DNA of 64,000 nucleotides, from the NCBI GenBank assembly GCA_964427405.1, contig CAYRUB010000002.1:68741-132740 (forward strand), given 5' to 3'. The stretch is from an uncultured Planctomycetales bacterium. GTDB taxonomy: Bacteria; Omnitrophota; Gorgyraeia; Gygaellales; Profunditerraquicolaceae. The notes beneath the pieces were generated by a model. It saw nothing but the letters and a program-made list of their open reading frames with translations. It did no database searches and was not told where the DNA came from. Numbering within the stretch: the first letter of the stretch is position 1; the number at the start of each line of letters is the position of its first letter. The translations under genes and the position numbers were made by a program. Of the stretch, positions 2,190 to 45,730 are shown in pieces.

Positions 2190-2190
2190 C

Positions 2191-6198: not shown

Positions 6199-6216
6199 AG
6201 AGGCAGGAAGGTATTG

Positions 6217-7131
6217 CTATTCTTTAGATCCGGCAAAGACAGCAGTTTGATTAAGGATGGTCTTTGTTCCGGTTACCAGGTTAGTCATCTCTACAATAGT
6301 AAAATCTTTAAAAGCGTAAGTATTTAAAGTAAGAGAGACTATCTTTAAGATTTCCCTGTCGATATCCGCATTCTTTTCCACCTCTGGTTTTTGGAACTTC
6401 ATTCTTATGCGGCCTTGGATCTGATCAGTGAGAAACTCCTCTAAGGTTATATCCTGATAAACTAAATGCCTGCCTTCTTTATCTCCGATAATCTGTGCGG
6501 AAACCTCCGTATTCTGGACAATACGGTGCTGATATTCGGACTGGGAGATAAAACCATAAGACAGTTTCTTTAAGTCCAGGCAATAAAAAATTTGTTTTAG
6601 TTCAAAACCGTTTGCGATATCTGAAGTAACAATACAGAAAAACAGGGGGTTATTCTTAGGCTGCTTGTTATCCATACTAAAAAGCACTCTGCGGATAACC
6701 TGCAATACGTTAAAGATTTTTGTATTTACGGATTTATCTAATGACATATCCTGCTGTTTTTCTGTTTCCGGGACAGGTTTAACAAGATAATTAATTCTTA
6801 AGATTCTTTCATCCAAGTGACTCTTTCTGTTTTCAACCAGGAATCTTTCGATGTATTTTTCCGGTTTGGGAGATTTGGTAATTATGTTCTCAAGCGGCAT
6901 ATATACCCAAAAAGTGCGCCCCTCAAGATTGGTTATAATATCAAGCTGGTATTCCTTTTTACATATATCTTTTACTGCTTTGGAGATATCATTTTTTAAA
7001 AATGACGGAGTGGTAGAGGAGGTGCAGGCGGATAAAAATAAAATAAGAGGGATCAGTTTAAGGGCGGCTCTTGCCAAACTCTTTGAAGATAGCTTCGATT
7101 TCATCGTAATTGAGTTCACTTTTTGCCACAA
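6217..7131 (-). CDS. Hypothetical lipoprotein (signal peptide plus lipobox LSAC)
   Basis: N-terminal signal peptide ending in LILFLSAC followed by a Ser/Thr-rich linker. No recognisable catalytic motif. The true start may be the internal Met near nt 7104. Confidence 0.5.
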   Translation of the reverse strand: MWQKVNSITMKSKLSSKSLARAALKLIPLILFLSACTSSTTPSFLKNDISKAVKDICKKEYQLDIITNLEGRTFWVYMPLENIITKSPKPEKYIERFLVENRKSHLDERILRINYLVKPVPETEKQQDMSLDKSVNTKIFNVLQVIRRVLFSMDNKQPKNNPLFFCIVTSDIANGFELKQIFYCLDLKKLSYGFISQSEYQHRIVQNTEVSAQIIGDKEGRHLVYQDITLEEFLTDQIQGRIRMKFQKPEVEKNADIDREILKIVSLTLNTYAFKDFTIVEMTNLVTGTKTILNQTAVFAGSKE

Positions 7132-8737
7132 GCTCTTTGGCCAACCGGTCCATAAGGGGTTCTTCTTTTTTGAGTAATGCGGTTACTTCGATAAGGCAGG
7201 TATTTAATATGTCCTGGACGTCGGCATCAAGCTTGCCCTTAACATCTTCGGAGATCTTATCAACAATCTCCCAGTTGCCTAAAAATCCGCTTTTACCCAT
7301 GCCGCAGACCCAGACCATATTGTGGGCATGATGCATGGCACTGGAAAAATCTCCATATACGCCGGAGGTTGTCGCATTGTACTTGATTTTTTCTGCAGCG
7401 TACGAACCTAAACTAATCTTTATTTTGCTGAGTAGCTCATTAGAATCTTCAATAAAAGTATCTTCTCTTTCCGGAATCCAGGTTGCTCCACCAGTGGGGC
7501 CGCGCGGGGTGATCGTTATTTTAAAAACATCCTTAGAGGGGGCAAGCAGGTAAGTGGTAATGGCATGTCCGCTTTCATGGTAGGCGGTCTGCCATTTTTC
7601 TTTTTCACTTAATTTAATTCTGCGTTTTATACCTAAGGCGATTCTTTCCCGCGCTTCATCAATTTCTTTCATGGAAACTGATGAGTTTTGATTGCGTACG
7701 GTAATTAGGGCTGCCTCTCGTACTATATTGGCAATATCCGCCGGGCTTTGACCTACGGTAATGCGTGCGAGCCGGTCGATCTTTACATCTTGCGCATCAT
7801 ATTTTACACTTTTTAGGTAATAGGCAAAGAGCTTACCGCGATCCTCCAGATTGGGTTTATCTACGATGATCTTGCGGTCAAACCTTCCCGGTCTAAGCAG
7901 GGCCTGATCAAGGTAAGTTTCAGGCGCATTGGTTGCGCCGATTAAAATAATATTATAATCTTTATCTTTTAGGCCATCCAGTTCAACCAGCAACTGATTC
8001 AGGGTAGTATTATGCTCAGTAGTCCCGCCGAAACCGCGATCCATGGAACGTTGCGCGCCTATGGCATCAATTTCATCAATAAAAATGATGCAGCCGCCTT
8101 CAAGTTCCGCCAGTTGTTGTGCCCTTTTAAATAAAGAACGTACCCTTCCGGCTCCTACGCCGACAAACATCTCTACAAATTCCGAACCCGACATGGAGAT
8201 AAAAGGAAGCTTGGTTTCTGTAGCGATTGCTTTAGCCAGGTAAGTCTTACCGCATCCCGGGGGGCCGAGCATAAGGATGCCTTTTAAAATTTTTCCTCCT
8301 ATACGCTGAAGGCTCACACGGTCGGTGATCAATTTAACTACTTCCAGGGCTTCTTGTTTGGCTTCATCCATCCCGATCACATCATCCCAGGTAACACCTA
8401 CATCTCCCCCGGAAATAGATTTCTTGCTGGTTTGAGAAAATGATGAGGCCCCGCGTTTAAAATAGAGCCAATACATCAGGTATGTGTATACAAAGCCGAA
8501 GATAAGGGCCATAATAATCTGTAGGTATAGCTGCAGGGGAATCATGGCTAGCTGGGATTGTCTTAAATAAGATTCAGATTCATTCCAGGCACGCAGGCCG
8601 GTAATAACGAGGAATCCTAGAGATATGGCCAGTGCAGCTAAAAAAGTAAAAAGGAGGACTTTTAACCAGTGTAGCTTTGCATAGAACCTGATTTTTTTCC
8701 AATTCATAATTTCTCCCGTCTGCCGCTGACTAAGCAT
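7058..8737 (-). CDS. ftsH: ATP-dependent zinc metalloprotease FtsH (AAA+ plus M41 peptidase)
   Basis: Walker A GPPGCGKT, AAA second region, zinc-binding HESGHAI (HEXXH), N-terminal TM helices. Confidence 0.85.
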   Translation of the reverse strand: MLSQRQTGEIMNWKKIRFYAKLHWLKVLLFTFLAALAISLGFLVITGLRAWNESESYLRQSQLAMIPLQLYLQIIMALIFGFVYTYLMYWLYFKRGASSFSQTSKKSISGGDVGVTWDDVIGMDEAKQEALEVVKLITDRVSLQRIGGKILKGILMLGPPGCGKTYLAKAIATETKLPFISMSGSEFVEMFVGVGAGRVRSLFKRAQQLAELEGGCIIFIDEIDAIGAQRSMDRGFGGTTEHNTTLNQLLVELDGLKDKDYNIILIGATNAPETYLDQALLRPGRFDRKIIVDKPNLEDRGKLFAYYLKSVKYDAQDVKIDRLARITVGQSPADIANIVREAALITVRNQNSSVSMKEIDEARERIALGIKRRIKLSEKEKWQTAYHESGHAITTYLLAPSKDVFKITITPRGPTGGATWIPEREDTFIEDSNELLSKIKISLGSYAAEKIKYNATTSGVYGDFSSAMHHAHNMVWVCGMGKSGFLGNWEIVDKISEDVKGKLDADVQDILNTCLIEVTALLKKEEPLMDRLAKELVAKSELNYDEIEAIFKEFGKSRP

Positions 8738-8797
8738 GTGAAATACAACATATAAAAAATAACATATCTGTTATCTTAAGTCAAACCTTTTCTTCCC

Positions 8798-8825
8798 TTG
8801 ACTTGATAATTTTTGCGTGTATAAT
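8798..8825 (+). promoter_or_regulatory. Sigma70-like promoter upstream of eno (TTGACT, 16-nt spacer, TATAAT)
   Basis: TTGACT at 8798-8803 and TATAAT at 8820-8825, about 40 nt upstream of the eno RBS GGGAG. Confidence 0.45.
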
Positions 8826-8830
8826 TATGA

Positions 8831-10132
<1,302 letters not shown>

Positions 10133-10414
10133 ATGCTCTCTACGTTAAGAAAGGCCTTTTGGCTTTTTGGTTTTACGGTTTTGCTTTTAATCTTATTCCT
10201 GCCGGGTTATATAAAATTGCAGGGATTAAGAGCGAAGAACCGTCAGTTAGAGGATAGTTTTCGTAAGATGGCCGTTGAAAATTATCTTTTGCAACAAGAG
10301 CTTAAGCGGGTTGATAATGACCCGGTTTATCAGGAGAAGATGGCTCGGGATAAGATGGGGGTAGTGAGAAAAGGCGAGATCCCGATTAAGATTTTCTCGG
10401 ATAAGAAGAGATAG
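10133..10414 (+). CDS. ftsB: Septum formation initiator FtsB/DivIC family
   Basis: Single N-terminal TM helix followed by a coiled coil (LQGLRAKNRQLEDSFRKMAVENYLLQQELKRV). Typical position just after eno. Confidence 0.65.
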   Translation: MLSTLRKAFWLFGFTVLLLILFLPGYIKLQGLRAKNRQLEDSFRKMAVENYLLQQELKRVDNDPVYQEKMARDKMGVVRKGEIPIKIFSDKKR

Positions 10415-10561
10415 CTGGTTTTAATATCATAGGTAGGTAATCAATATCCCCGCAGTTAATCGCTTCGCAAATTCTTCACAGAATTTGTTCGCAACTGCAG
10501 GGATTAATTCGCACATTGACTTATGTTTACTCCGTTCCATAAGCCAAGTGCTCATTAATTT

Positions 10562-10635
10562 CGCGGGGTGGAGCAGCCTGGTAGCTCGCAAGGCTCATAA
10601 CCTTGAGGTCATGCGTTCAAATCGCATCCCCGCAA
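10562..10635 (+). tRNA. tRNA-Met (CAT), initiator-type (C1:A72 mismatch)
   Basis: Cloverleaf CGCGGGG...GCTCATAACC...GTTCAAATC...CCCCGCA-A. The unpaired C1/A72 end and the GGAGCAGCCTGGTAGCTCG D-region match bacterial tRNA-fMet. No encoded CCA. Confidence 0.8.
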
Positions 10636-10717
10636 TTGAACATACACCTGTACCGTTAGATGCACATATTGTGTAAAATCCCGTGAGCGTAAGCGAAACG
10701 GGGTCAATACAAACAAG

Positions 10718-10760
10718 GCTAGGATGAGCAGTTATGCAAATCCTGGCTTTTTTGTTTTTC
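10718..10760 (+). terminator. Putative rho-independent terminator downstream of tRNA-fMet
   Basis: GCTAGGAT...ATCCTGGC stem (8 bp with one G-U), then TTTTTTGTTTTT. Confidence 0.4.
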
Positions 10761-10910
10761 TATCCCAGTCAGCTCCATTCTGCCCCCTGTTATGGTTACG
10801 GGTTTTTTCTCCCCATTAAATTGCTTACCATTCTGAAATGGAAGTGATATAATTAGGAAACAGTTTGGTAAAATCGTTAATTTTTGATATAAGAAATAGA
10901 TGAATAAAAA

Positions 10911-12272
10911 ATGATGAAGAAAATATCTTACTTTATTTTTATTTTTTGCCTGTTATTTATATCAGCTTGCCAGCGCGAAGGAAAAAGGGGGTACGCGCCT
11001 CCGGCTGTAATTCCTAACACAACAAGAGAGATGAAAAGCCCCGGTTTTTGGATAAGCCGGAATTCTTTCGCAGATAAAGTGGTTTTGGATTCTTCAGCTA
11101 TCGCTTTGTTTAACTCAGAAGTAGAATGTAAGCTTGGGCTTACGGAGGATGTTGCTAAAATTGGCCCGAGTTATTCAGGGGAAGAATTAAGCTCTTTTTT
11201 AGAAAAAGAACTTAAGGGGCTTTTTTTAAATAAACTTTTCGATAAAAATGCAAAGAGAATAAACAACTCTTTTTACCGGGCAATCAGGGAAGAAATTAAT
11301 TTTAGCGCTATACCGGTTGAAATTAATGTGCGTTACGGTTTTATCAGGCATTATGCTGACCAGAGGATTTTGCCAACTGAGGAGGCCTTATTTAGTCAGC
11401 CGGGTGATGTTGAATTTGACGAGCTTCAAAATAGTTCTTTGGATATCGGGACACCTTTAGCAGTTTTACATGAAAGTAAAGACGGTTTATGGATATATGC
11501 GCATTCTCCGGCAAGCCCAGGCTGGGTAAGAAAAGACAGGGTTGTTATTTGTACTTTTGCTGAGCTTAAGAGTTATTTAGAAAAAGAGCCCTTTGTTGTA
11601 GTGACTAATACTAAGGCCGATATTTTCTTAGATCCGGGTTTAACACAATATTTTGATTATGTCAGGATGGGAGTGAGGTTTCCCGTAAAGAAAGATATTA
11701 ATTCTGGAGTAATCCAGATTTCTATCCCTTTTCAAGTAGATGGAGGCAAGTTTAATAAGCGCAATGCCTATATGAGAAAAGAGGATATAAATTCAGGCTA
11801 TTTACTGTATACTCCTCGCAATATTATTCAGCAGGCCTTTAAGCTTCTCAATGCTCCTTATGGCTGGGGAGGCATGAATGGCGAACAGGATTGCTCTAGC
11901 TTTCTCCAGGAGATTTTTTCCACCGTTGGTATATATTTACCAAGGAATTCTCAGGCTCAATGTAAAGTAGGAAAGCAATTAGGGTCATTTACTGAAAAAA
12001 CAAACAGCGCATCAAAACTGCTTATTCTGGATAAATTAGCTATCGGTGGAGCTACGATTTTACAGTTAAAAGGACACGTGCTTTTATATCTTGGGTCATA
12101 TAAAGGTTCTCCTTACGTGATACATGAAACTCATGGCTATAGGCAAAAAAAAGGGTGGAAAGATATCTTGTGCGCAGTAAATCGCGTAGTAGTAAGCGAT
12201 CTTTCTTTGGGGCAAGGGTCAAAAAATGGTTCTTTGCTTGAAAGATTGCTATCTATTTGTAACGTTAATTAA
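10911..12272 (+). CDS. NlpC/P60 (C40) family peptidoglycan peptidase lipoprotein
   Basis: Lipobox FISAC. C-terminal NlpC/P60 core with catalytic Cys in NGEQDCSSF and a downstream His (GHVLLYLG). Confidence 0.65.
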   Translation: MMKKISYFIFIFCLLFISACQREGKRGYAPPAVIPNTTREMKSPGFWISRNSFADKVVLDSSAIALFNSEVECKLGLTEDVAKIGPSYSGEELSSFLEKELKGLFLNKLFDKNAKRINNSFYRAIREEINFSAIPVEINVRYGFIRHYADQRILPTEEALFSQPGDVEFDELQNSSLDIGTPLAVLHESKDGLWIYAHSPASPGWVRKDRVVICTFAELKSYLEKEPFVVVTNTKADIFLDPGLTQYFDYVRMGVRFPVKKDINSGVIQISIPFQVDGGKFNKRNAYMRKEDINSGYLLYTPRNIIQQAFKLLNAPYGWGGMNGEQDCSSFLQEIFSTVGIYLPRNSQAQCKVGKQLGSFTEKTNSASKLLILDKLAIGGATILQLKGHVLLYLGSYKGSPYVIHETHGYRQKKGWKDILCAVNRVVVSDLSLGQGSKNGSLLERLLSICNVN

Positions 12273-14262: not shown

Positions 14263-16926
14263 ATGGATAAAACTTTATATAGCTTTACGGATAATTCAGG
14301 AAGTTTTTATTCGGGCTGCGCAGATAAAATCAAGAGCCTGTATTTGCCTCTGGGCAATGATAGCATTATGTCTTCTATCACTCCTGATTTGCATGGGGAT
14401 ATCAAGAGCGGACAAAACTCTTTTCTTTTGGCCCCGGTTTCGCGCATTGATTTAACCAACTTGCGCTCTTCGCGCAACTTCTGGATTTATATTAACCCGC
14501 GTAAAGTATGGTCAGCTACCGGTGTCTCCAAAGATTCCAAACAGATAGGCCAGGATAAATTTAGCTTAGAGGCTGGTTTACTTTGGCAGAAGATAAACCG
14601 TCGGAATAAAACAATAGGTATTAATGCAGAGATCCTTTCTTTTGTGCCGGCTACGGGTGAGCCGGTTGAAATAATGCAAGTCAGGCTTACCAATATTTCC
14701 CGTAACTTAATAAGTTTTATCCCCACAGCGGCTATTCCTATGTATAGCCGCGGCGCCAATAATATACGCGATCATCGCCACGTAACCAGTTTGTTGCAGC
14801 GTGTTAGCTTGCATAAATTTGGGGTAATCTCTAAACCGACATTGGCTTTTGATGAATCCGGCCACCGGAGGAATAAAGATAGCTATTTTGTTTTAAGCTG
14901 GGATGAAAAACTTTCTCCTCCTGAGAGGATCTATCCGACACAGGAGGTTTTTTGTGGAGACTCAGGTGACCTGGAAGAACCAGAGGCGGTATTTAAAAAC
15001 ATCCCTGAGCGGTTAAATAATATTCAGGGCAAGGAGGTCATGGGGGGTTTAAGTTTTAAGAGAGTTTCTCTTAAAACTGGGCAGTCAAAGATATATACGG
15101 TGGCTATGGGGATAGTTCAGGATGCCGGGCAAATTACAAAATTAATTTCTAAATTTAATCATCCGGATAAAATTTCGCATGCCTTGCAAAAAACTAGAAT
15201 ATTCTGGGGAAGCTTGAGTCAGGGGATAAATATTACAACACAGGATAGAGATTTTGATAACTGGTTGCGCTGGGTAAATGCCCAACCGACATTAAGAAGA
15301 ATTTTCGGGTGTTCATTTCTGCCGGATTTTGATTACGGAAAAGGCGGGCGTGGATGGCGCGACCTATGGCAGGATTGCCTGGGGCTAATCCTTAATGAAC
15401 CTGAAAAAGTCAGGCCGTTTTTAGTTAATAATTTCTGCGGAGTAAAGATTGACGGCTCCAATGCTACTATCATCGGAAAGGAGCCCGGAGAATTTATTGC
15501 CGACCGTAACAATATCAGCCGGGTATGGATGGATCATGGTATCTGGCCGCTTTTAACCCTGGATTTATATATTAACGAAACCGGTGACCTGGGTATTTTG
15601 TTTGAGTCGGCAACTTATTTTTACAATCATGAAATAAAACGTACCAAAGATATTGATTATAACTGGACACCTGCTTACGGGAATAAGCTAAAGACTAATT
15701 CCGGAAGGATATATTCAGGTTCTGTTTTAGAGCATCTTTTAGTGCAAAATCTGGTACAGTTCCTTAATGTCGGCAGCCACAATCATATCCGTCTTGAAGG
15801 TGCTGATTGGAATGACGGCCTGGATATGGCAAGGGAAAACGGAGAAAGCGTAGCTTTTAGCGCTATGTACGCGCAAAATCTGGAAACACTTGCTGAACTT
15901 TTGCTTAAAACCGGGAAAAACAAAATAGAGGTTTTCGATGAGATCAAAATATTATTTACTAAGATTAATTACAAAAGCATTCCTTCTAAGCGTAAACTTT
16001 TAGGTAAATATTTTTCTAAAATTTCTACTGTTGTGTCCGGAAAAAAGATCCTTTTAGATGTCGCGCAGATAGCCGCAGATCTTAGGGGTAAGTCTGTTTG
16101 GATGAAACAACACATCCGTGCCTCAGAATGGCTTAAGGAAGGGTTTTTTAATGGTTATTATGATAACCGTAAGAAGCGCCTGGAGGGTAGAAAAGGAAAT
16201 CGTGTGCAAATGACCCTGACTGCCCAGGTTTTTAACGTAATGGCCGGCATTGCCCGGCCTTGGCAGGTGCGCAAAATCCTACAAAGTGTAAATAAATATC
16301 TGTTTGATAAACAAAACCGCAGCATTCATCTTAATACCGATTTTAAACAAGAGCAGCTTGATTTGGGCAGGGCTTTTTCTTTTTCTTATGGGGAAAAGGA
16401 GAATGGGGCAATTTTTAGCCATATGGCAGTGATGTTTAGTTATGCGTTATATAAACAAGGCTATGCTCAAGAGGCCTGGGAAACTTTAAGCTCACTTTAT
16501 AAAATGGCAGTGAATACTTCCAGGAGTAAAGTTTATCCTTGTCTGCCGGAATACTTTAATCTGGAAGGCCGGGGGATGTATTCTTATTTGACCGGTTCAG
16601 CCAGCTGGTTTATGTTAACTATGCTTACCCAGGTTTTTGGAGTCAGGGGGCAGGGCGGAGATTTGGTAATTGAGCCAAAATTAAACGCAGAGCATTTTCG
16701 TAAAAGCAACAGCATAAGCATTGAGCGTATTTTTGCCGGCAGAAGGATAAAAATAAAGTTTATAAATTGCGGAAAGCTTGTTTACGGAAAGTATAAGATT
16801 GCTAAGGTTTTGTTTAATTCAGAAAATCTGCTTGTTGATAAATCCCGCTATTTGATCATTACCCGCCAGGTAATCCTTGCCCTACCGAACAAAAAGTTAA
16901 ATTTAATCGAAGTTCATCTGCGTTAA
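14263..16926 (+). CDS. Large (alpha/alpha)6-barrel glycoside phosphorylase/hydrolase-like protein (GH94/cellobiose-phosphorylase-like)
   Basis: 887 aa. GADWNDGLDM resembles the catalytic DWND region of GH94 phosphorylases. Family assignment is tentative. Confidence 0.4.
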   Translation: MDKTLYSFTDNSGSFYSGCADKIKSLYLPLGNDSIMSSITPDLHGDIKSGQNSFLLAPVSRIDLTNLRSSRNFWIYINPRKVWSATGVSKDSKQIGQDKFSLEAGLLWQKINRRNKTIGINAEILSFVPATGEPVEIMQVRLTNISRNLISFIPTAAIPMYSRGANNIRDHRHVTSLLQRVSLHKFGVISKPTLAFDESGHRRNKDSYFVLSWDEKLSPPERIYPTQEVFCGDSGDLEEPEAVFKNIPERLNNIQGKEVMGGLSFKRVSLKTGQSKIYTVAMGIVQDAGQITKLISKFNHPDKISHALQKTRIFWGSLSQGINITTQDRDFDNWLRWVNAQPTLRRIFGCSFLPDFDYGKGGRGWRDLWQDCLGLILNEPEKVRPFLVNNFCGVKIDGSNATIIGKEPGEFIADRNNISRVWMDHGIWPLLTLDLYINETGDLGILFESATYFYNHEIKRTKDIDYNWTPAYGNKLKTNSGRIYSGSVLEHLLVQNLVQFLNVGSHNHIRLEGADWNDGLDMARENGESVAFSAMYAQNLETLAELLLKTGKNKIEVFDEIKILFTKINYKSIPSKRKLLGKYFSKISTVVSGKKILLDVAQIAADLRGKSVWMKQHIRASEWLKEGFFNGYYDNRKKRLEGRKGNRVQMTLTAQVFNVMAGIARPWQVRKILQSVNKYLFDKQNRSIHLNTDFKQEQLDLGRAFSFSYGEKENGAIFSHMAVMFSYALYKQGYAQEAWETLSSLYKMAVNTSRSKVYPCLPEYFNLEGRGMYSYLTGSASWFMLTMLTQVFGVRGQGGDLVIEPKLNAEHFRKSNSISIERIFAGRRIKIKFINCGKLVYGKYKIAKVLFNSENLLVDKSRYLIITRQVILALPNKKLNLIEVHLR

Positions 16927-17448
16927 TTCCTGCGTTTTTGTGCAGACAAAAAGCTGATTAAATCCAAGCATAAAGGTTTGATAGGTTTCAATCTGGAAAA
17001 GGCCTTTCAGCAAGTTATGCATAGAATTTAGATTGTAATATCTTTGGTGCGGGCCTTCTGTCGTTTCGTAATGGGGATGATATATCTTCATCAGCCACTT
17101 TCCCGCTGACTTCGGGGTAGTTATAATTAATTTACCGTCAGCTTTGATTATACGGTGGCATTCTTTGATAATCTTTTCCGGGCAGCTCAGATGTTCTATG
17201 CAGGCCAGCATTGTTATGCAGTCAATGCTATTGTCTTGCGCAGGGATTGTATCAACCAGGACTTGTCCAGTTTGCCGGTCAAATCCTATGCGGGTCCGGC
17301 AGGGGGATTTTTTTAATAAGTACTTATCGAGCCCGCATCCGATATCAATATGGATTTCTGCGCGGGGAATATAAGGCAAGGCTTTGCGCGTCCTTATTTC
17401 TCTGGTAAGCCAGGTGAAGATATTTAATAATTTTTTATGATTGCCCAT
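16903..17448 (-). CDS. Class I SAM-dependent methyltransferase
   Basis: Motif I HIDIGCGLDKYL, motif post-I, and IIKADGKLIITTP (Methyltransf_11/23-like). Confidence 0.7.
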   Translation of the reverse strand: MGNHKKLLNIFTWLTREIRTRKALPYIPRAEIHIDIGCGLDKYLLKKSPCRTRIGFDRQTGQVLVDTIPAQDNSIDCITMLACIEHLSCPEKIIKECHRIIKADGKLIITTPKSAGKWLMKIYHPHYETTEGPHQRYYNLNSMHNLLKGLFQIETYQTFMLGFNQLFVCTKTQELTQMNFD

Positions 17449-18806
17449 AATCCCTTGAAATCATTTTTAAGTTCAGCAAAGTTTAAATGCCGCAATCTTT
17501 TTGCGATATACGCCGGCCTTAAATAAAATGACCGGGTGGAGTTTTTTATTAAGACAGACAATTCTTTAACTGACATTTTTGTGGTATTCAGCCTGAGTTG
17601 TTCGTATGCGAATGAATAAGGTTGGCCGTTGATGAACCAGTCATTGCGCAGGGCCTCATCATATAGGCAGGAGCCGGGGAACGCGGTAAGGTATGCGCAG
17701 TTAAGATAATCCGGGTCTAATTGTTTTATAAATGCTAAAGTCTGGCGGGCGGTTTCTTTGGTTTCCCCGGGCGCGCCAAAAATAATATTTAAGGTTACCT
17801 GGATCCCTGCTTTCTTTGTTGCCTGGACAGCTCTGGTTGCCTGCTCTAATGTAAAATCCTTTTTAAGATTATTCAGAATTTCCTGGTTGCCTGATTCTAG
17901 CCCATAGGTAATCATTTTGCAGCCAGCCTGCTTCATTAATAAGGCGATTTCTTCGTTGATCATGTCTACCCGTCCATTACAGGACCAGATAAGATTAAAC
18001 CTTTTCTCGATTAAAAGCTTACATAGCGCAATCACATTTTTTTTGTCGATCAAAAAGTCGCTATCTTTAAAAAGAATCTCCTTGATTTTGAATTCTTTGA
18101 CTAACCTGGAGATTTCTGAAATAGTTTTTTGCGGAGACTGCACCCTGTAAACTTTTCCGAACATTTTCTGCACGCCGCAGAAAATACAGTTAAAGGGGCA
18201 CCCGCGGCTGCGGATAAAAGTAACATAAGGTGAGCGCGTTGAGACCATGCTGTTATAACGCGCGATAGGAAGTAAGCCGTAGGCAGGCAAGGGGATAGTG
18301 TCGAGATCCGGTATCAATTCTCTTTTCGGGTTTACAATTATCCGGCCGTTTTTCCTAAACACCAGCCCTTTGATTAAACTGTAATCCTTATCTCTTGATT
18401 CATATGTCTTTAACCATTCAAGAAAAGTGATTTCTCCTTCTCCTGCTACTATTGCATCAAAATTAGTGTCCTTAATCACATCAAGGGGCTGAACTGTAGG
18501 ATGATATCCTCCTGCAATGATAGTAACGTGGGGGAGGACTGTTTTTACAAATCCGGCAGTGTAGTGCGCACTGTCTGATAACAGGCTGGTGAAGCTTATG
18601 CCTACTACGTCGGGTTGAAATTCACGAAGCAGCATGCGCAATGATTGAAAAGGCTTTTTTTCAACGTTAGCATCGAATATGAGCACATTGTGCCCTTGCT
18701 CTAAAGTGACAGCGCTGACAAATGCTATCCCTAGCGGAGGGTATTTTAATCCCTGTTGGATTTTAAGATTGACATTTACCGGAGGGTGTATAAATAATAT
18801 TTTCAT
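17424..18806 (-). CDS. B12-binding radical SAM protein (class B)
   Basis: N-terminal cobalamin-binding Rossmann region (MKILFIHPP...) and the radical SAM CxxxCxxC motif (RGCPFNCIFCGV). Confidence 0.8.
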   Translation of the reverse strand: MKILFIHPPVNVNLKIQQGLKYPPLGIAFVSAVTLEQGHNVLIFDANVEKKPFQSLRMLLREFQPDVVGISFTSLLSDSAHYTAGFVKTVLPHVTIIAGGYHPTVQPLDVIKDTNFDAIVAGEGEITFLEWLKTYESRDKDYSLIKGLVFRKNGRIIVNPKRELIPDLDTIPLPAYGLLPIARYNSMVSTRSPYVTFIRSRGCPFNCIFCGVQKMFGKVYRVQSPQKTISEISRLVKEFKIKEILFKDSDFLIDKKNVIALCKLLIEKRFNLIWSCNGRVDMINEEIALLMKQAGCKMITYGLESGNQEILNNLKKDFTLEQATRAVQATKKAGIQVTLNIIFGAPGETKETARQTLAFIKQLDPDYLNCAYLTAFPGSCLYDEALRNDWFINGQPYSFAYEQLRLNTTKMSVKELSVLIKNSTRSFYLRPAYIAKRLRHLNFAELKNDFKGLWAIIKNY

Positions 18807-18812
18807 AGTCGG

Positions 18813-20228
18813 CTAATGGTTCAGCAGCGTGCTTGCCATATGAACTTGTCTGATCAACTGGGAGACGCTTTTAATTTTAGTTAGTTTACGCATCATGAAT
18901 TTCGGCCGCATGTAGAATTTTTTATTTGTTTCCCGGATAATCTGATCGACCCTTTGTTCAGGCAATTCTTTTGAGGAGAGGCAAGGCGCAGTATTAGTAA
19001 TTTCTCCTGCAAGAAATTTCTCCCAATAATCTGCCGGAATAAGTTTTTGCGAGGCTGCCCAATCAAAGAGTTCGCTTCCCGGTATAAGTATTGTTTTACT
19101 GAGTACCGCAAAATCCGGTTCTATAGCAAATATTAGCGCAATGGTTTTTTTAATAGTCTTTTCGGTTTCTTCGGGGCAGCCGAACATGAAATAGCCGTAG
19201 ATTTCAATACCTGATTCTTTAACAAGGCGGGCGCATTCCAGGGACTGCTTTACGGTAATTCCTTTTTTCAGGATTCTTAATATCGCCTCGTCCCCTGATT
19301 CAAACCCAAAACGGATACGGTAGCAGCCAGATTTTTTCATTATTGCAAGAAGCTCCCGGTCAACCATGTCAACCCGGCTGCGGCACTCCCATATAATTTT
19401 GAGGTTTTTTTCAAGGATTAGATTACAGAATTCAATGGTGCGCCTGCGGTCTATGATAAATTCATCGTCAAAAAACATTATCTCTTTTATGCCATAGTGG
19501 TCTTTTAATTCTCGCATTTCTTCTATAATTCTGCGATTCGAAAAAGAGCGCCATTTATTTCCCATGCGGTTACGCCTGTCGCAATAAATACAACTGTAAG
19601 GGCAGCCCCGGCTGGTGATCATAGTTGCGCATGTGCGTTTTCTCGATAAGGCATCATAATAACGATTAAGCTTTACCAGGTGCCTGGCAGGGTTTGGGAT
19701 AGAATCCAGCGTTTCAATCAAAGGCCTTTGTCCGTTCAAAAATAACTGCTGTTTTTTTCGGTAAATAATTCCAGGTATTTTGCTTGTGTCGCCTTTAAAG
19801 CCAAGTGTCCGCATAAGCTCAATAGTTGTTTTTTCACCTTCGCCAATCACTCCATAATCAAACACGCTGTATTCCATTACCGGCTCGGGTGCTGAAGTGA
19901 TTGCCGCTCCGCCTGCAACTACGCATATAGAAGGAAGGGTATTCTTTGCAAGTTTTGCGATTTCATTAGCCTGGTGAAAAGTCCATGTCATTACGTGGAT
20001 GCACAAGATCTCCGGCTTAAGGCGTAAAAGGGAATGCAGGATCTTGTTTTGAGGATCAGTTTCAATATCAATATCGATTACTTCGACATGGTGGCCTTCT
20101 TGCTCTAATACTGCAGCGATGTAGAGTAACCCTAACGAAGGATAAATTCCCCGGGCTTTTTCAATCCTGTTGTTATAATGCCCCACCTGTTCTCGGGTGA
20201 GGCTTGGGTTGATAAGCAGAATGTTCAT
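18813..20228 (-). CDS. B12-binding radical SAM protein (class B), paralog
   Basis: MNILLINPS B12-binding N-terminus and RGCPYSCIYCD radical SAM motif. Paralogous to the 17424..18806 gene. Confidence 0.8.
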   Translation of the reverse strand: MNILLINPSLTREQVGHYNNRIEKARGIYPSLGLLYIAAVLEQEGHHVEVIDIDIETDPQNKILHSLLRLKPEILCIHVMTWTFHQANEIAKLAKNTLPSICVVAGGAAITSAPEPVMEYSVFDYGVIGEGEKTTIELMRTLGFKGDTSKIPGIIYRKKQQLFLNGQRPLIETLDSIPNPARHLVKLNRYYDALSRKRTCATMITSRGCPYSCIYCDRRNRMGNKWRSFSNRRIIEEMRELKDHYGIKEIMFFDDEFIIDRRRTIEFCNLILEKNLKIIWECRSRVDMVDRELLAIMKKSGCYRIRFGFESGDEAILRILKKGITVKQSLECARLVKESGIEIYGYFMFGCPEETEKTIKKTIALIFAIEPDFAVLSKTILIPGSELFDWAASQKLIPADYWEKFLAGEITNTAPCLSSKELPEQRVDQIIRETNKKFYMRPKFMMRKLTKIKSVSQLIRQVHMASTLLNH

Positions 20229-20242
20229 ATAAAGAGTTTTGT

Positions 20243-21139
20243 TTAGTGTTTTGTTCCCATCATATCAGCAAGCATTCCGAATAGTATGATTTGAATGCCG
20301 CCAATAACCAGGATTGAAATAGTGGCATCGCCAAAGAATCCCTCCCCGGCCAGCATAATTTTAATCCCCAGCGCAACTCCTGCTGCAATTAAAAAGATCC
20401 CCAGGGGGAGGAATACTTTTAGCGGATTGGCGTAGAAAAAGAAGCGGATTATGGTTGGTACCACCTTGATGGGATAGCGCCAGGAAATAAATGATTTTCC
20501 CGTTTCTCTTTTATAAAATACTACGGGAGTTTCAATAATGCGCATGTGCTTGCTGCTTGCATCCATAATTAATTGTTGCGTCTCATTGTAATCTGAGATC
20601 ATTTCAAAATCTTTAAGATAGCGTTTGCTGAAAGCCATAAGCCCTGTCTGGGCATCGGTTATTTTAAAGCCGGTAAGTTTGCTTACCAGATAGCTGAAAA
20701 ATCGATTACCCATTGTGCGATAAAAAGGCATGGTATATTTTAATCCACCGCTAAAGCGGCTGCCGAAGACACAATCTGCTTTGTCTTCAAGTATGGGCTG
20801 TATAAGCTTATCGATGTCATCAGGGTCATGCTGGAAATCAGCGTCGATTTTAACCGCAACATCGGCGCCCATTTCATAAGCCCTTTGCAGGCCGATGCGC
20901 GTAGCGGCGCCTAACCCCCGGTTTTTAATATGCGAGATTATTTTGTTTACTCCGGCCTCTTTGGCAACTTTTGCGGTGTTGTCAGAGGAGCCGTCATCCA
21001 CTACGATAATCTCAACCCAATAGTTTTTATTTTGGGCAATATAATTTTCCTGTATTTTCTTAATAACATTTGCTATTGACGCCTCTTCATTATGTGCGGG
21101 TATCATAATAACTACGTAAGGGTATCTTTCTAATGTCAT
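20243..21139 (-). CDS. GT2 polyprenyl-phosphate sugar transferase (ArnC/DPM1/GtrB-like)
   Basis: GT-A fold with DDGSSDNT and an ED motif, plus two C-terminal TM helices as in ArnC/GtrB. Confidence 0.8.
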   Translation of the reverse strand: MTLERYPYVVIMIPAHNEEASIANVIKKIQENYIAQNKNYWVEIIVVDDGSSDNTAKVAKEAGVNKIISHIKNRGLGAATRIGLQRAYEMGADVAVKIDADFQHDPDDIDKLIQPILEDKADCVFGSRFSGGLKYTMPFYRTMGNRFFSYLVSKLTGFKITDAQTGLMAFSKRYLKDFEMISDYNETQQLIMDASSKHMRIIETPVVFYKRETGKSFISWRYPIKVVPTIIRFFFYANPLKVFLPLGIFLIAAGVALGIKIMLAGEGFFGDATISILVIGGIQIILFGMLADMMGTKH

Positions 21140-22278
21140 ATTATTGTCCTTTCCTTTAGCCTGTGTAATAGCTTGCCAACCGAATTGACCATATAATCTA
21201 ACTCTTTCTTTGTCAGCCCGGGATACATAGGTAAGGTTACAATGGAATCAGCCACGCGTTCAGTCACCGGTAAATCATGGATCAGGTATTTGTATCTTTC
21301 CGCATAGTATTTTTGTAAATGCACGGGGGGAGTAAAATGCACTGAGGCCATAATTCCTTTTTTCCTCAAACCCAGAACAAAATCCCTCCTTACGACTTTT
21401 TTAACTTTGATGGTGTACATCTGGTAGACATGCCGGCACTCTTTTAACTCTACGGGAAGATCTATTTCATCAAAGCTTAATTTTTTATTCAAGTAGGCAG
21501 CATGTTCTCTGCGTCGTGCATTCATGGCATCAAGTTTTTTCAATTGTTCAACGCCAATGGCCGCTAAAATACTGCTCATCCTGAAATTGTACCCGGCGTA
21601 ACTGGCTTCTCTGAACCATGGTTCTTGTGAATGTTGGCGTTCATACGTGCTTTTTTTAATGCCGTGGCCGGCCAGGACCTTTACTTTATCGGCGAGTTTA
21701 TGATTATTCGTAGTAAGCATCCCGCCTTCACCGGTAGTGATATTTTTTGTGGGGTAAAATGAAAAACATCCCGTAGAAAAGCTGCCGGTTTTTTGTTTCT
21801 TGTAAGTTCCGCCAATGGTCTCAGCGGAATCTTCAATGATCTTTAAGTTATGCCGGCCGGCAAGTTTAGTAATTTTATCCATAGGGCATGCCTGTCCTGC
21901 GTAGTGCACGACCATTATTGCCTGGGTGCGGGGAGTAATCTTGCGTGCGATGTCAATGGGATCAATATTGCAGGTGCCGTATTCTATATCTGCAAACACC
22001 GGTGTCGCCCCGGCTCTTACTACAGCGTTTGCGGAGGCAACAAAGGTAAAACTGGGCAGAATCACCTCGCCCGTGATTTCCGAAGCTTCTATTGCCAGTT
22101 GCAGCGCCGCGGTGCAGGAATTCAAAGTCAGGGCTCTTTTTACTCCGATATATTTTGCAAATGCTTCTTCAAATTCTGTGTTCATCGGGCCGTCAGTAAG
22201 CCACCCCGATTTTAACACCTTCTCAATTGCCCGGGATTCCTTTGAATTAAAATTATTTTTGCAAAGCCGGATTTTCAT
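21136..22278 (-). CDS. DegT/DnrJ/EryC1/StrS-family PLP-dependent sugar aminotransferase (ArnB-like)
   Basis: Family N-terminal (LKSGWLTDGPMNTEFEEAFAKYIG) and a PLP-lysine region. Confidence 0.85.
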   Translation of the reverse strand: MKIRLCKNNFNSKESRAIEKVLKSGWLTDGPMNTEFEEAFAKYIGVKRALTLNSCTAALQLAIEASEITGEVILPSFTFVASANAVVRAGATPVFADIEYGTCNIDPIDIARKITPRTQAIMVVHYAGQACPMDKITKLAGRHNLKIIEDSAETIGGTYKKQKTGSFSTGCFSFYPTKNITTGEGGMLTTNNHKLADKVKVLAGHGIKKSTYERQHSQEPWFREASYAGYNFRMSSILAAIGVEQLKKLDAMNARRREHAAYLNKKLSFDEIDLPVELKECRHVYQMYTIKVKKVVRRDFVLGLRKKGIMASVHFTPPVHLQKYYAERYKYLIHDLPVTERVADSIVTLPMYPGLTKKELDYMVNSVGKLLHRLKERTII

Positions 22279-23267
22279 TCTGTGCCGGGCTCATTCTTGT
22301 TAAAACCGTTTTCCAGGATAAAATCAATATACTCGTTAATCCCTCTTTCAATATCATAAACTGGTTCATACCCCAGGATTTTCTTAGCCTTTGTGTTATC
22401 CAGGGCGCCTCTTTTTGGCCTGCGTTCATCCGAAGGCTTTATTTGAATACTTAGCCCGGGGATCCTTTTTTTAATAGCTTCTGCGAATTCTTTGACGCTT
22501 CTGCCTTCTCCTCTGGTTATATTAAATGTTTCATTCTTGGCGTTATCGGAAAGGGCGGCTAGCACAAACCCATGGGCGGTGTCTTTGACATAGGTAAAAT
22601 CAATTCTTTCCTGGCCGCCATCGTGTAAGGTAAGCGGCTTTCCGGAAAGGGCGGCATTGATAAGGATTTGCGTTACCCTGCGGTTTGCATCGGTGGGGCC
22701 GTACACCGCGGAAGGCCTGATAATAGTGTAATCCATGCCGAACTTTTTGCCAAAAGCAGCGGTGAGAATTTCTCCTGAAAGTTTTGTTCCTCCGTAAATA
22801 TCAATAGGGCGGCTGGGGTGATTTTCGTCCGCGGGCTCATAATCAAAATCGCCGTAAATAAAACTGGATGAAGTGAAAATAAACCTTTTGACTGAAGTCG
22901 CCTGTCTCAAGCATTCAAGAATAGTCACTGTACCGTTGAGGTTAATTTGGATTGCTTCTTCAGAAAACTGATTTGATGCTTTGTGAATGGGGATGGCAGC
23001 CAGATGGATGACCAGGTCAGGCGCGGTTTCCTTAAGGGCCTTAGCCAGGCATCCCCTGTTGCGTATATCGCCTCGTATCAGACAGGTTTTATTCTTTAAG
23101 TCATTTAAACGGTATCTTAGGTATGTCGCATATGAACTTTCCAGCGGCGGGATGTAATTTAAGAAGGCGTCGTATAAAATGACTTCAACATTATGCTCAA
23201 GGAGTTCCTTGGTGATGTGATACCCCAGGAAGCCGGCTCCGCCAGTGATCAGAATTTTTTTTGTCAT
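22275..23267 (-). CDS. NAD-dependent sugar epimerase/dehydratase (extended SDR)
   Basis: GGAGFLG Rossmann motif and the YxxxK catalytic region. UDP-sugar 4-epimerase/4,6-dehydratase-like. Confidence 0.85.
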   Translation of the reverse strand: MTKKILITGGAGFLGYHITKELLEHNVEVILYDAFLNYIPPLESSYATYLRYRLNDLKNKTCLIRGDIRNRGCLAKALKETAPDLVIHLAAIPIHKASNQFSEEAIQINLNGTVTILECLRQATSVKRFIFTSSSFIYGDFDYEPADENHPSRPIDIYGGTKLSGEILTAAFGKKFGMDYTIIRPSAVYGPTDANRRVTQILINAALSGKPLTLHDGGQERIDFTYVKDTAHGFVLAALSDNAKNETFNITRGEGRSVKEFAEAIKKRIPGLSIQIKPSDERRPKRGALDNTKAKKILGYEPVYDIERGINEYIDFILENGFNKNEPGTE

Positions 23268-23405
23268 TATGTTTGTGGTTCCGAGTATTAGTTTAGACGG
23301 ATATTGTTTTTATTATATTATAAATAAATAGCGTATGCAAAGCATTTTAGCCCCAGATTTATTCTTGCAATTGTTTATTTATGATATAATTAAAACAAAT
23401 AAATT

Positions 23406-25247
23406 ATGATGAAAAATTTAGAAAATCGTACACTTTTTTTTATACCATTCGCCGCGTTGCTCTTGTTTTTTCTGGGAATAACCATCTATTCCAATATTTT
23501 GAAAAGCCCCTTTCAGTTTGATGATATTGGGTTTATCGTTGAGAATCGCAGCATAAGGGATATTTCAAATCTGCCTTTAATCTGGAAATTCCTGCCTACC
23601 CGTTTCATGGATTTCTTTTCCTTGGCTTTAAATTACCATTTTGCTAAATTGGATGTTTTTAGCTATCACCTATTTAATTTATTCTTACACCTTGCGGTAT
23701 CAACGCTGGTTTTTTGGTTTGTGCGGCTTATTTTTTCTACTCCAATTATGAAAGAAGAGCGGCTGGCGCGGTTCAAAGGAGAGATCGCCTTATTTATCAG
23801 CCTCATATTTTTAGTTCACCCCATTCAAACAGAATCAGTGACTTATATACATCAACGTTCAACCTGCCTTGCCGGGCTGTTTTATTTATCTTCTCTTTGT
23901 TTATATGTAACTGCCAGATTATGGGGGATAGGCGGGAAGTTGCGCATCCAAAGGCGCATTTTATATATCTTAGCTTATATAGTTGCCCTAGCTGGCATGT
24001 TTACCCGGGAGAATACGATTACCTTACCCTTAGCCATACTTTTATTTGAATTTTATTTTTTTAGGACAGACAAACAAATAAAATGGCAACCGGCGGCCCC
24101 TTTTTTAATCACCTTGCCCATTATCCCGGTTACCATGTTTTTGTCTAAACCCATCACTTTATTGCATATCCAGAAATTGGCCGATGCTCCTATAAAAGGC
24201 TGGTATTATTTCTTAACACAACTAAATGTAAAAATTACCTACTTAAGGTTATTCTTTTATCCTCTAAAACAAAATTTTGATTATGACTATCCAGTATCCA
24301 GGAGCCTGTTTGAGTTACCGACTTTAATCAGCCTGATCGCGTTAATACTGGTTTTGGTTATCGCTGTAAAAATATTCCGCAGATACAAAATATTATCTTT
24401 TGCCATCTTTTGGTTTTTTCTGACATTATTACCGGAGTCGAGTTTTATTCCCCAGCCTGATGTTATATTTGAACACCGGCTTTATTTACCGTTAGTCGGC
24501 CTTTGCATTTTTTCTGTTTGTGTTATGTATTATATTTTTTCCGCAAGAAATAGAAGGCTCTTGGTTATTTTACTAGGTATAATTGTGATATTTTCTTCTG
24601 TTTTAACATTTAAGAGAAATATCATCTGGAGGGATGAAATCTCTTTATGGAATGACACAATCAGTAAGTCTCCCGATAAAGCACGCCCCTATAATGAACG
24701 CGGTAATGCTTATGCTGCCAAGGGCAATTATGCCCAAGCTATCGCGGATTTTAATAAGGCCATTGAAATTGATTCAAAGATGCATTTTAGCGTTAAGAAC
24801 CCCCTGCATTCATATCCTATCAGCGCCAGGATCTATTATAATCGCGCAAATGTATATCAAAAGATGGGCAATCCCGGACAGGCTTTATCCGACTATAACC
24901 GCTCTATTGAAATAAATAGTATTAATCCCAGGGCGTATAATAACCGGGCAACTATTTATGCGATGAAAAATGAGTATGATCAAGCTGTTCTTGATCTCGG
25001 CCAGGCGATAAAAAGTGATCCCAACTTTATTTTGGCATATTCCAACCGGGCAGCGCTATATATGGAGAGGCATAAATACCCGGAAGCAATCTCTGATTTT
25101 TCTAAGGCCGTACAAATTGACCCTAATTTTACCGAGGCATATTATGGCAGGGCAGTTGCTTATCTGAATATGGATAATCTTCAGCAGGCAAGCCTGGATT
25201 TTGAAAAAGTCAAGCGGCTCGAGTCTAGCGCGGGGGTAAAAAGATAG
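23406..25247 (+). CDS. GT-C-type (DUF1736/TMTC/PMT-like) membrane glycosyltransferase with C-terminal TPR repeats
   Basis: N-terminal [11 protein letters not shown] motif after TM1, about 10 TM helices, and a C-terminal TPR array ([18 protein letters not shown] and similar). Confidence 0.7.
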
Positions 25248-39810: not shown

Positions 39811-39934
39811 AATAAATAATTACTAACCAACACCCCGCGTTGCCCAGGCACCTGGCCCCTATGGGAATTGGGTCAGTGTTTGCCACGTGGCGAAAATTGT
39901 GCGGGTGTGCCCTTGAGGGCAAGGAGGAAGTAAA

Positions 39935-40438: not shown

Positions 40439-40452
40439 AATAAATATTCATA

Positions 40453-42785: not shown

Positions 42786-42786
42786 T

Positions 42787-43566: not shown

Positions 43567-43574
43567 AAATACAT

Positions 43575-45656: not shown

Positions 45657-45730
45657 GCGCCTGTAGCTCAACTGGATAGAGCGCTAGCCTTCGGAGCTAG
45701 GCGTTGCAGGTTCGACTCCTGCCAGGCGCA
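45657..45730 (+). tRNA. tRNA-Arg (TCG)
   Basis: Acceptor GCGCCTG/CAGGCGC, anticodon stem CTAGC/GCTAG with loop CTTCGGA (TCG), T-arm GCAGG-TTCGACT-CCTGC. Confidence 0.85.

Follow-up and report, generated by a model that had tools for sequence, protein, structure and literature searches.

Lipid-carrier systems for single sugars (Arn, Gtr, Lgm, PpgS and DPM/PMT) play a central part in modifying the cell envelope and in resistance to antibiotics. In the Arn system (ArnA/B/C/D/T/E/F) 4-amino-4-deoxy-L-arabinose (L-Ara4N) is placed on lipid A, and a common logic unites the three-component systems, namely GtrA/B/C, LgmA/B/C of Bordetella, FlmF/NaxD/FlmK of Francisella, the mycobacterial PpgS/Rv3779 and the archaeal AglJ: a family 2 glycosyltransferase (GT2), a flippase, and a variable glycosyltransferase of the GT-C type that sets the acceptor. 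We know of no radical S-adenosylmethionine (SAM) tailoring enzymes in the Gtr, Lgm, Flm, PpgS or AglJ systems. Here we describe a locus from an uncultured Planctomycetales bacterium that GTDB places in the Omnitrophota (contig CAYRUB010000002.1, positions 68,741 to 132,740; the whole stretch of 64,000 nucleotides is called the window below). Two B12-binding radical SAM proteins, termed rSAM-A and rSAM-B, are encoded there in an operon with a short-chain dehydrogenase/reductase (SDR), a DegT-type aminotransferase, a GT2 and a small class I SAM methyltransferase, and a GT-C protein with tetratricopeptide repeats (TPRs) is encoded divergently. An initial annotation of the sequence had recognized in this arrangement the logic of the Arn enzymes, in which an amino sugar is made on a lipid carrier and a GT-C enzyme transfers it.

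Our results favor that logic, which is supported by the relatives of the individual enzymes, by the conservation of the cassette and by the gene content of one related locus described below. We consider it probable that the genes specify an Arn/Gtr-type pathway in which an extracytoplasmic target is glycosylated from a lipid-carrier sugar donor, with radical SAM tailoring and GT-C transfer. The SDR would oxidise a hydroxyl, probably at C4, and the ArnB-like DegT enzyme would turn the resulting ketone into an amine; both could act on a nucleotide sugar, as in Arn, or on an already lipid-linked sugar. At the inner membrane face the GT2 would charge polyprenyl phosphate with the sugar, and rSAM-A, rSAM-B and the small methyltransferase would tailor the amino sugar. 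Once the sugar has been flipped, a GT-C enzyme, here the divergent protein, would attach it to an acceptor at the outer face, most likely a protein chosen by the periplasmic TPR domain of the enzyme. We infer the order of the steps, the identity of the sugar, the role of the radical SAM enzymes, the coupling to the GT-C of the window and the nature of the acceptor; the enzyme classes follow from homology, as shown below.

Domain calls were made by Pfam and NCBIfam profile searches, and NCBIfam equivalog cut-offs were used for family membership. The GT2 scores 94 bits against the Pfam GT2 profile, and in a sequence search of the PDB all its significant full-length relatives are polyprenyl-phosphate transferases (Pyrococcus DPMS, 5mlz; ArnC, 9hwj/9bhc/8vxh; GtrB, 5ekp). 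Residues 9-295 align to residues 10-296 of ArnC, C-terminal transmembrane helices included, and hydropathy places the two helices at about 246-264 and 272-290. The protein carries a DADFQHDP signature; the stretch VKIDADFQHDPD at residues 96-107 aligns with DADLQHPP of DPMS and DADLQNPP of ArnC, and its DxD sits in the DAD(L/F)Q(H/N/D)PP-type context of GT-A polyprenyl-phosphate glycosyltransferases. AglJ, PpgS, PgfS, a haloarchaeal dolichyl-phosphate hexose transferase and ArnC are the top NCBIfam models, yet all score below their equivalog cut-offs (for ArnC, NF007986, 73.5 bits vs a cut-off of 529). Homology thus assigns the GT2 to the polyprenyl-phosphate specificity class, and the enzyme is predicted to work like ArnC/GtrB while being an ortholog of no named enzyme. 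The description as an ArnC/GtrB-like transferase with C-terminal helices therefore stands, and closer alignment revealed polyprenyl-phosphate transferase features, whose lack the initial annotation had named as grounds for rejecting its reading.

The aminotransferase was likewise correctly assigned to the DegT/ArnB type. It scores 399 bits against Pfam DegT (PF01041; gathering score 19.8), keeps the pyridoxal phosphate (PLP) lysine K178 in SFYPTK instead of the His of dehydratase variants, and has ArnB (1mdo, 236 bits) as its best solved match, followed by glutamine-scyllo-inositol transaminase and then by C4-aminotransferases such as perosamine synthase; the NCBIfam scores for PseC (328 bits) and ArnB (NF008658, 280 bits vs 631) are both below cut-off. 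The SDR had been proposed to be an epimerase/dehydratase, of which only the first part holds. It matches Pfam Epimerase with 179 bits, its best solved relatives are the UDP-GlcA 4-epimerase of B. cereus (6zl6, 112 bits), GalE, Pal, UXS1 and MoeE5, and its clade is marked by the motifs TSSSFIYGDF, IDIYGGTKL and IIRPSAVYGPTDxNRRV. The catalytic Ser/Thr and YxxxK are kept, and the active-site stretch TSSSFIYG is present in 26/26 cassette orthologs. However, the Asp-Glu pair of the 4,6-dehydratases is replaced by Ser-Phe (RmlB model 143 bits vs 365, LegB 145 vs 475), and the catalytic Glu of the ArnA/UXS decarboxylases (STSEVYG) is replaced by Phe, again in 26/26 orthologs; for the ArnA model the score is 51 bits vs a cut-off of 777. 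The small methyltransferase was rightly placed in class I (Methyltransf_23, 51 bits; Methyltransf_11, 38 bits).

By domains and motif, and in the case of rSAM-A also by fold, rSAM-A and rSAM-B are class B radical SAM enzymes that are predicted to bind cobalamin, and they are paralogs as first annotated (33% identity, E 2e-91). Pfam B12-binding (PF02310) is matched with 82 and 66 bits and Radical_SAM (PF04055) with 91 and 88 bits, and CxxxCxxC is kept in both (C209xxxC213xxC216 in rSAM-A, C203xxxC207xxC210 in rSAM-B). The structural model of rSAM-A (pLDDT 93) displays an N-terminal B12-binding Rossmann domain and a radical SAM core in a complete class-B architecture, C-terminal helical domain included. 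A fold search placed it at about the same distance from TsrM, AprD4, MgmA/QCMT, OxsB, CysS and TokK (TMq 0.63-0.75) and did not separate methylases from non-methylases; nor does any sequence motif separate methylases from HpnJ-, BchE- or AprD4-like enzymes. The top NCBIfam models are BchE (200-222 bits), HpnJ (188-215) and a ladderane-type model (148-165), then ApyD, PhpK and BzaD. Since all scores lie far below the cut-offs (BchE 481 and HpnJ 578, vs 200/188 bits for rSAM-A and 222/215 for rSAM-B; AprD4 122 bits vs 500), the two proteins belong to no curated family. The initial annotation had also asked whether the pair might cluster with bacteriochlorophyll or hopanoid enzymes transferred as a block. 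This can be ruled out, as BchE, HpnJ and HpnR are far below their cut-offs and each lineage has sugar and carrier genes as neighbors.

The core of the cassette is conserved across phyla. A contig scan with the single rSAM-A sequence yielded close relatives within the Omnitrophota and, beyond these, no more than two unrelated radical SAM loci, whereas a metagenome scan with an alignment was productive. Within the genus (rSAM-A identity 72-99%) the whole neighborhood is kept, and one metagenome contig (L015) is 97-99% identical to the window. Unrelated flanking genes, a GH94-like gene and hisG, are syntenic at this depth as well, and synteny within the genus consequently says little about function. 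Beyond it, other Omnitrophota and also Patescibacteria (e.g. Portnoybacteria, Zambryskibacteria) have rSAM-A orthologs of 43-69% identity. We counted neighbors at 33 such loci, using for each gene only the loci with enough flanking sequence, and compared them with loci below 43% identity. At 23/26 loci the gene just upstream of rSAM-A is the cassette GT2 (0/16 below 43%), and nearby are DegT at 19/24 (vs 0/13), the SDR at 19/27 (vs 0/19), rSAM-B at 7/27 (vs 0/19) and a related methyltransferase at 10/22 (vs 0/17). Downstream of rSAM-A, 14 of 21 loci have a flippase-like LPG_synthase_TM gene, against 1/16 below 43%. The conserved order is SDR, DegT, GT2, (rSAM-B), rSAM-A, (hexapeptide/GNAT acyltransferase), (methyltransferase) and flippase-like gene, with optional members in parentheses; rSAM-A is the defining radical SAM member and always present, and rSAM-B, with orthologs of 42-58% identity at seven loci (L011, L022, L036, L039, L045, L048 and L094), is optional. 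Methyltransferase orthologs were found in L022 (57%) and L094 (51%), and weaker homologs lie 3' of rSAM-A in loci of the candidate phyla radiation (CPR). A lack of synteny across relatives, which had been named as a possible refutation, was accordingly not seen: the locus is kept within the genus and its core across phyla.

Two single loci and a group of CPR loci are particularly informative. In L094, from another Omnitrophota metagenome-assembled genome, the six genes stand in the order of the window (identities: SDR 64%, DegT 63%, GT2 70%, rSAM-A 56%, rSAM-B 58%, methyltransferase 51%) and are followed directly by a co-directional PMT_2 gene, PMT_2 being the Pfam family of ArnT. In L022 (Ga0180433_10006724, 212-11241) the genes are DegT, GT2, Polysacc_deac_1, Formyl_trans_N+C, rSAM-A (53%), rSAM-B (55%), methyltransferase, SDR (44%), an open reading frame (ORF) of 159 aa and PMT_2. 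Judging from its predicted proteins this is essentially an arnB, arnC, arnD, arnA formyltransferase and arnT-like set into which the rSAM pair and the methyltransferase are inserted, and with an ArnA-type formyltransferase, an ArnD-type deacetylase and a PMT_2 protein added, the parallel to Arn becomes nearly explicit. The 159-aa ORF has no Pfam match and precedes the PMT_2 gene; it could be a small flippase subunit. In CPR loci a family of polytopic proteins of 535-612 aa adjoins the cassette, one member having a PMT_2 match, and hhalign found no detectable homology between this family and the GT-C family of the window (probability 6%), which makes the two separate GT-C candidates. The predicted proteins indicate that the cassette is repeatedly coupled to a GT-C-type membrane transferase and that this transferase is exchangeable, as expected if it sets acceptor specificity in the manner of GtrC in Gtr systems.

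The scans also revealed neighboring arrangements of a different kind. Class-B radical SAM genes seem to be unusually abundant in CPR glycan loci, where a GT2 gene frequently accompanies them; a Candidatus Nealsonbacteria contig (JBDRKR010000020.1; L009:3708-12928) has five B12-binding radical SAM paralogs in a stretch of about 9 kb, and L083 and L050 are similar. A second recurring module adjoins the cassette in L011:12323-15941, L032, L040, L048, L066, L094:1490-3383 and L095, and comprises a GT2 of about 320 aa (250 aa in L094) and a radical SAM protein of about 370 aa (with SPASM in L094), some loci adding a B12 radical SAM gene. Finally, in the CPR loci L014:2421-4670, L054, L057, L058 and L068 a Wzy_C-TPR fusion is transcribed divergently from Bac_transf, GT2 and a further gene, whose radical SAM product shares about 40% identity with rSAM-A. 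The fusion resembles O-antigen ligase or a PglL-type O-oligosaccharyltransferase, and looks like a second, en-bloc TPR-guided glycosylation system.

The divergent GT-C protein of the window had been described as DUF1736/TMTC/PMT-like. The TMTC/PMT part of this description holds, whereas Pfam finds the TPRs only, and the 425-residue N-terminal domain has no Pfam match at E<=10, DUF1736 (PF08409) included. Homology shows the 613-aa protein to be a bacterial GT-C of the TMTC family. Human TMTC1-4 N-domain sequences (Additional file 1, PMC7801869), searched with a hidden Markov model of the window GT-C family, gave 73-100 bits and nearly full-length alignments (E 1e-18 to 1e-26, calculated as if one million sequences had been searched). 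The fold is that of a GT-C with an acidic motif in its first extracytoplasmic loop and is nearest to yeast Pmt4 and Pmt2, which are protein O-mannosyltransferases, and the protein has about 11 transmembrane helices, in a polytopic domain ending near residue 425, followed by TPRs, an architecture common to TMTC1-4. The C-terminal array could be verified (TPR_1, 143 bits over residues 425-607, at least four repeats), and its solved TPR matches include OGT. The catalytic-type motif FQFDD was found at residues 36-40, with D39 and D40 invariant in 32 homologs, and these two residues coincide with the DD of M1 among the conserved TMTC motifs M1-M7 (PMC7801869, Table 4). Other family-invariant residues map onto the same set: M4 (K/R-E-x-x-x-T) corresponds to R201-E202-N-T-I-T206, M5 (D-W) to D292-Y293 and M7 (E-R-x-x-Y) to E356-H-R358-L-Y360; VHPIQTE matches VHPIHTE of the TMTCs, and M3 and M6 are partial only. 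The mannose-contacting motif M2 (SHKSYRP) is absent and falls in a gap. The window protein thus differs from TMTC1-4 in being bacterial and in its lack of a DUF1736 match and of M2, and its donor is probably a sugar other than mannose and not a mannosyl phosphate lipid. More generally, there is a bacterial TMTC-like family that lacks the segment of about 11 residues bearing SHKSYRP and keeps the metal- and phosphate-binding motifs, and this segment may serve as an easy indicator of which donor sugar a member of the superfamily uses.

A protein is our best guess for the acceptor. This is favored because the closest relatives of the GT-C glycosylate proteins and because TPRs bind proteins, as the initial annotation had suspected from the TPR domain; TMTC topology (PMC7801869) predicts that this domain faces the periplasm. 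Paralogs of the GT-C may offer a further hint. In L089 (8001-17764) and L090 (7086-9926), TMTC-like GT-C/TPR paralogs directly adjoin type IV pilin-like genes (N_methyl, ComP_DUS), and L089 also has PilM/N and a secretin, while genes for a B12 radical SAM protein, for methyltransferases and for a flippase-like protein lie upstream. These gene contexts hint that some bacterial TMTC homologs glycosylate pilins. A regular-expression search for prepilin motifs found no convincing pilin gene in the window, and the link cannot therefore be transferred to the locus studied here. In its most specific form, which we put forward as a conjecture and think rather unlikely as a whole, the hypothesis says that the cassette makes an undescribed branched or rearranged amino sugar (e.g. 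garosamine-like, C- and N-methylated), on polyprenyl phosphate or just before loading, and that in this genus the bacterial TMTC homolog adds it to Ser/Thr residues of proteins, perhaps pilins, that reside in the periplasm or at the surface.

For the tailoring steps, the best-supported analogy is that with garosamine in gentamicin biosynthesis. In that pathway one sugar is acted on in turn by GenD2, GenS2, GenN and GenD1, which are respectively an oxidoreductase, a transaminase, an N-methyltransferase and a C-methyltransferase of the cobalamin radical SAM type (PMC4340712), and the same four enzyme classes meet in the cassette. In the most economical version, the class I enzyme would N-methylate and the radical enzymes would C-methylate. 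However, the garosamine substrate is an aminoglycoside pseudotrisaccharide and not a lipid-linked sugar, and the likeness shown is one of enzyme class. GenD2 is not known to be an SDR of the cassette type. Class-B radical SAM enzymes that act on lipid-attached sugars are known from the hopanoid (HpnI/HpnK/HpnJ) and moenomycin (MoeE5/MoeK5) pathways; HpnJ, one of the two best NCBIfam matches of the rSAM pair, contracts the ring of bacteriohopanetetrol (BHT)-glucosamine, and MoeK5, whose partner MoeE5 is among the solved relatives of the SDR, methylates a sugar in moenomycin A biosynthesis (PMC9204698). These pathways differ from ours in that no such genes were seen near the cassette and in that the carrier here would be polyprenyl phosphate. 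A third parallel is the diol dehydratase and reductase pair AprD4/AprD3 of apramycin C3' deoxygenation, in which a radical SAM enzyme and an NAD(P)-dependent reductase likewise work on an amino sugar; AprD4 binds no cobalamin (PMC12931638), whereas rSAM-A has a strong B12-binding match. Compared with Arn itself, the window shares the ArnB-like aminotransferase, the ArnC-like GT2 and an extracytoplasmic GT-C, but its SDR is not ArnA-dehydrogenase-like (no Glu434-type residue), formyltransferase, deformylase and ArnE/F are missing, the rSAM pair and methyltransferase are added, the GT-C is of the TMTC type with TPRs, and the cassette occurs in bacteria without lipid A. A counterpart of the flippase of three-component systems is present in the CPR versions of the cassette.

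The proposed pathway should be interpreted with some caution since several observations weigh against it. No flippase gene lies in or near the operon of the window, and the SDR lacks the dehydratase and decarboxylase residues by which a free keto sugar could arise. The adjacency of operon and GT-C is found in the genus at shallow depth only, where hisG and GH94 are equally syntenic; the TPR-fused GT-C is a lineage-specific partner and not a conserved member of the cassette, other lineages using a GT-C of the PMT_2 type; and among five sampled TMTC-like paralogs of about 45-55% identity, two adjoin the pilin-like genes in L089 and L090 and 3/5 stand in unrelated contexts. Moreover, the best-scoring models for the rSAM pair (BchE, HpnJ, ladderane-type) stand for enzymes that do not methylate or whose chemistry is unknown, and the best solved sequence match of rSAM-A is the dehydratase AprD4 (95 bits), which ties with TsrM in the fold search. 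The C- or unusual methylation that the initial annotation took the pair to imply, naming another radical modification as an alternative, is hence no more than a possibility; we give methylation close to an even chance and other radical chemistry a smaller though still substantial one, and leave the remainder unassigned. With other radical chemistry the pathway would be the same and the class I enzyme alone would methylate (N- or O-), while the radical enzymes would catalyze dehydration, deoxygenation or rearrangement: an AprD4-like diol dehydratase could give a keto-deoxy sugar that DegT aminates and/or the SDR reduces, or an HpnJ- or OxsB-like enzyme could rearrange the skeleton of the lipid-linked amino sugar. 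Such chemistry, which is a serious contender that we nevertheless rank below methylation, would agree with the profile and structure matches and account for a ketone despite the residues of the SDR, and HpnJ, BchE and OxsB are indeed non-methylases, HpnJ having a lipid-linked glucosamine as substrate (PMC9204698). Against it, none of the scores amounts to family membership, the B12-binding matches of both proteins are strong, a ring contraction of the HpnJ type would destroy the glycosyl-phosphate donor that the GT-C needs, and most characterised sugar-acting class-B enzymes (GenK, GenD1, Fms7 and MoeK5) are listed in reviews as sugar C-methylases (PMC9204698, PMC12931638).

A different objection is that the GT-C/TPR gene is a mere neighbor, the lipid-linked sugar being used by a GT-C encoded elsewhere or being itself the end product, and the TMTC-like enzyme using another donor. 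We find this somewhat unlikely, although the family is very large (>1300 matches among 8000 candidates scored), has paralogs in housekeeping contexts and, outside the genus, leaves its place beside the cassette to PMT_2-type proteins, and although synteny in the genus extends to unrelated genes. The operon needs a GT-C, and the divergent one is the only one in 64 kb; the two transcription units have a common divergent promoter region of 138 bp (consensus matches); a GT-C fills the adjacent slot of the same six-gene operon in L094, which fits GT-C replacement; a 55%-identical paralog (in L089) also adjoins B12 radical SAM, methyltransferase and flippase-like genes; and the absence of M2 is compatible with a different donor sugar. 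A true Arn analogue, with lipid A or the core of lipopolysaccharide as acceptor and a change of outer-membrane charge as the result, seems improbable to us; the initial annotation had named lipid A as one plausible acceptor. It is true that lpxD, lpxC-fabZ, lpxA and lpxI are present in the window as annotated and that the organism makes lipid A, and L022 has the full arnB/C/D/A-formyltransferase/arnT-like gene content. Patescibacteria, however, have neither lipid A nor an outer membrane, and as the cassette is common among them lipid A is unlikely to be the general acceptor; in addition, the window GT-C is nearest to protein O-mannosyltransferases and TMTCs and bears a TPR domain, and a distance of 13 kb separates the operon from the lpx genes, which belong to a housekeeping cluster. 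We attach very little weight to the idea of an ordinary cytoplasmic nucleotide-sugar, O-antigen or capsule cluster in which the GT2 extends a glycan instead of loading a lipid carrier. Polysaccharide loci often contain SDR, DegT and GT2 genes, and Bac_transf, Wzy_C and Polysacc_synt genes lie near the cassette in CPR loci, but the GT2, over its full length with both transmembrane helices and DADxQ, aligns only with monosaccharide polyprenyl-phosphate transferases, and no phosphoglycosyl transferase (PGT), Wzx or Wzy is among the annotated ORFs of the window.

The layout of the locus is given in the table below. All seven ORFs and their spacing agree with the six-gene minus-strand operon and divergent gene first annotated. 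The operon runs from 23267 down to 16903 and is tightly packed, with overlaps of 4 bp (SDR/DegT), 4 bp (DegT/GT2) and 25 bp (rSAM-B/methyltransferase) and gaps of 14 bp (GT2 to rSAM-A) and 6 bp (rSAM-A to rSAM-B). In the divergent intergenic region, a minus-strand promoter-like site (TTTGCA-18-TATAAT) lies at 23341-23312 and plus-strand sites lie at 23292-23321, all being consensus matches only. An Rfam scan of the whole window gave no riboswitch for cobalamin or SAM. A recent foreign island was ruled out, as the GC content of the operon (0.41-0.43) is the same as in the rest of the window.

Table. Positions of the operon, the divergent gene and other features in the window.
Feature	Position	Strand	Remarks
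Extended SDR	22275-23267	-	330 aa, operon gene 1
DegT/ArnB-type PLP sugar aminotransferase	21136-22278	-	380 aa
GT2 polyprenyl-phosphate glycosyltransferase (predicted)	20243-21139	-	298 aa
rSAM-A, B12-binding + Radical_SAM	18813-20228	-	471 aa
rSAM-B, B12-binding + Radical_SAM	17424-18806	-	460 aa
Class I SAM methyltransferase, Methyltransf_23/11	16903-17448	-	181 aa, last gene
Divergent intergenic region	23268-23405		138 bp, AT-rich, promoter-like hexamers in both directions
GT-C/TPR protein, divergent	23406-25247	+	613 aa
GT-C transmembrane domain	23406-24677	+	residues 1-~424, TMTC/PMT type
TPR array	24678-25247	+	residues ~425-607
GH94-like protein	14263-16926	+	887 aa
Outer-membrane/lipid A cluster	37414-44378	+	bamA, skp (OmpH), lpxD, lpxC-fabZ fusion (430 aa), lpxA, lpxI
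lpxD, lpxC-fabZ, lpxA, lpxI	40453-44378	+	behind bamA-skp
Stand-alone radical SAM protein	44931-45650	+	239 aa
tRNA gene	45657-45730
Histidine kinase	48118-50079	+	PAS-HisKA-HATPase, C-terminal PilZ

The GH94-like protein consists of a supersandwich and a catalytic domain and has no NCBIfam match. Its gene is convergent with the operon, overlaps the 3' end of the methyltransferase gene by 24 bp, and adjoins the operon only within this Omnitrophota genus. The outer-membrane and lipid A cluster confirms that the organism is a diderm with LpxI-type lipid A synthesis. A stand-alone radical SAM gene lies just 3' of lpxI and adjoins a tRNA gene, and further on a histidine kinase ends in a PilZ (c-di-GMP-binding) domain.

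Our search of the literature, which did not cover most papers in subscription journals, turned up no account of the cassette, nor any of a polyprenyl-phosphate sugar pathway that includes a B12 radical SAM enzyme. This agrees with the initial statement that the combination is absent from characterised lipid A and glycoprotein modification pathways. What is new is the proposed radical SAM tailoring within a known type of lipid-carrier glycosylation, that of Arn and Gtr, paired in this genus with a bacterial TMTC homolog.

In conclusion, the cassette puts one or two radical SAM enzymes between the carrier-loading GT2 and the flippase and GT-C steps, and so predicts a new surface sugar. The Omnitrophota and Patescibacteria are large uncultured groups with lifestyles dependent on cell-cell contact, and their surface chemistry is essentially unknown. 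With its six genes and a predicted lipid-linked substrate the cassette is a tractable target for the study of BchE/HpnJ-like class-B radical SAM chemistry on a sugar, and it offers a genomic-context clue to the function of the bacterial relatives of the human TMTC O-mannosyltransferases. If the hypothesis in its most specific form were true, it would provide the first function for bacterial TMTC-type enzymes and the first B12 radical SAM step in lipid-carrier glycosylation, one common to CPR bacteria.

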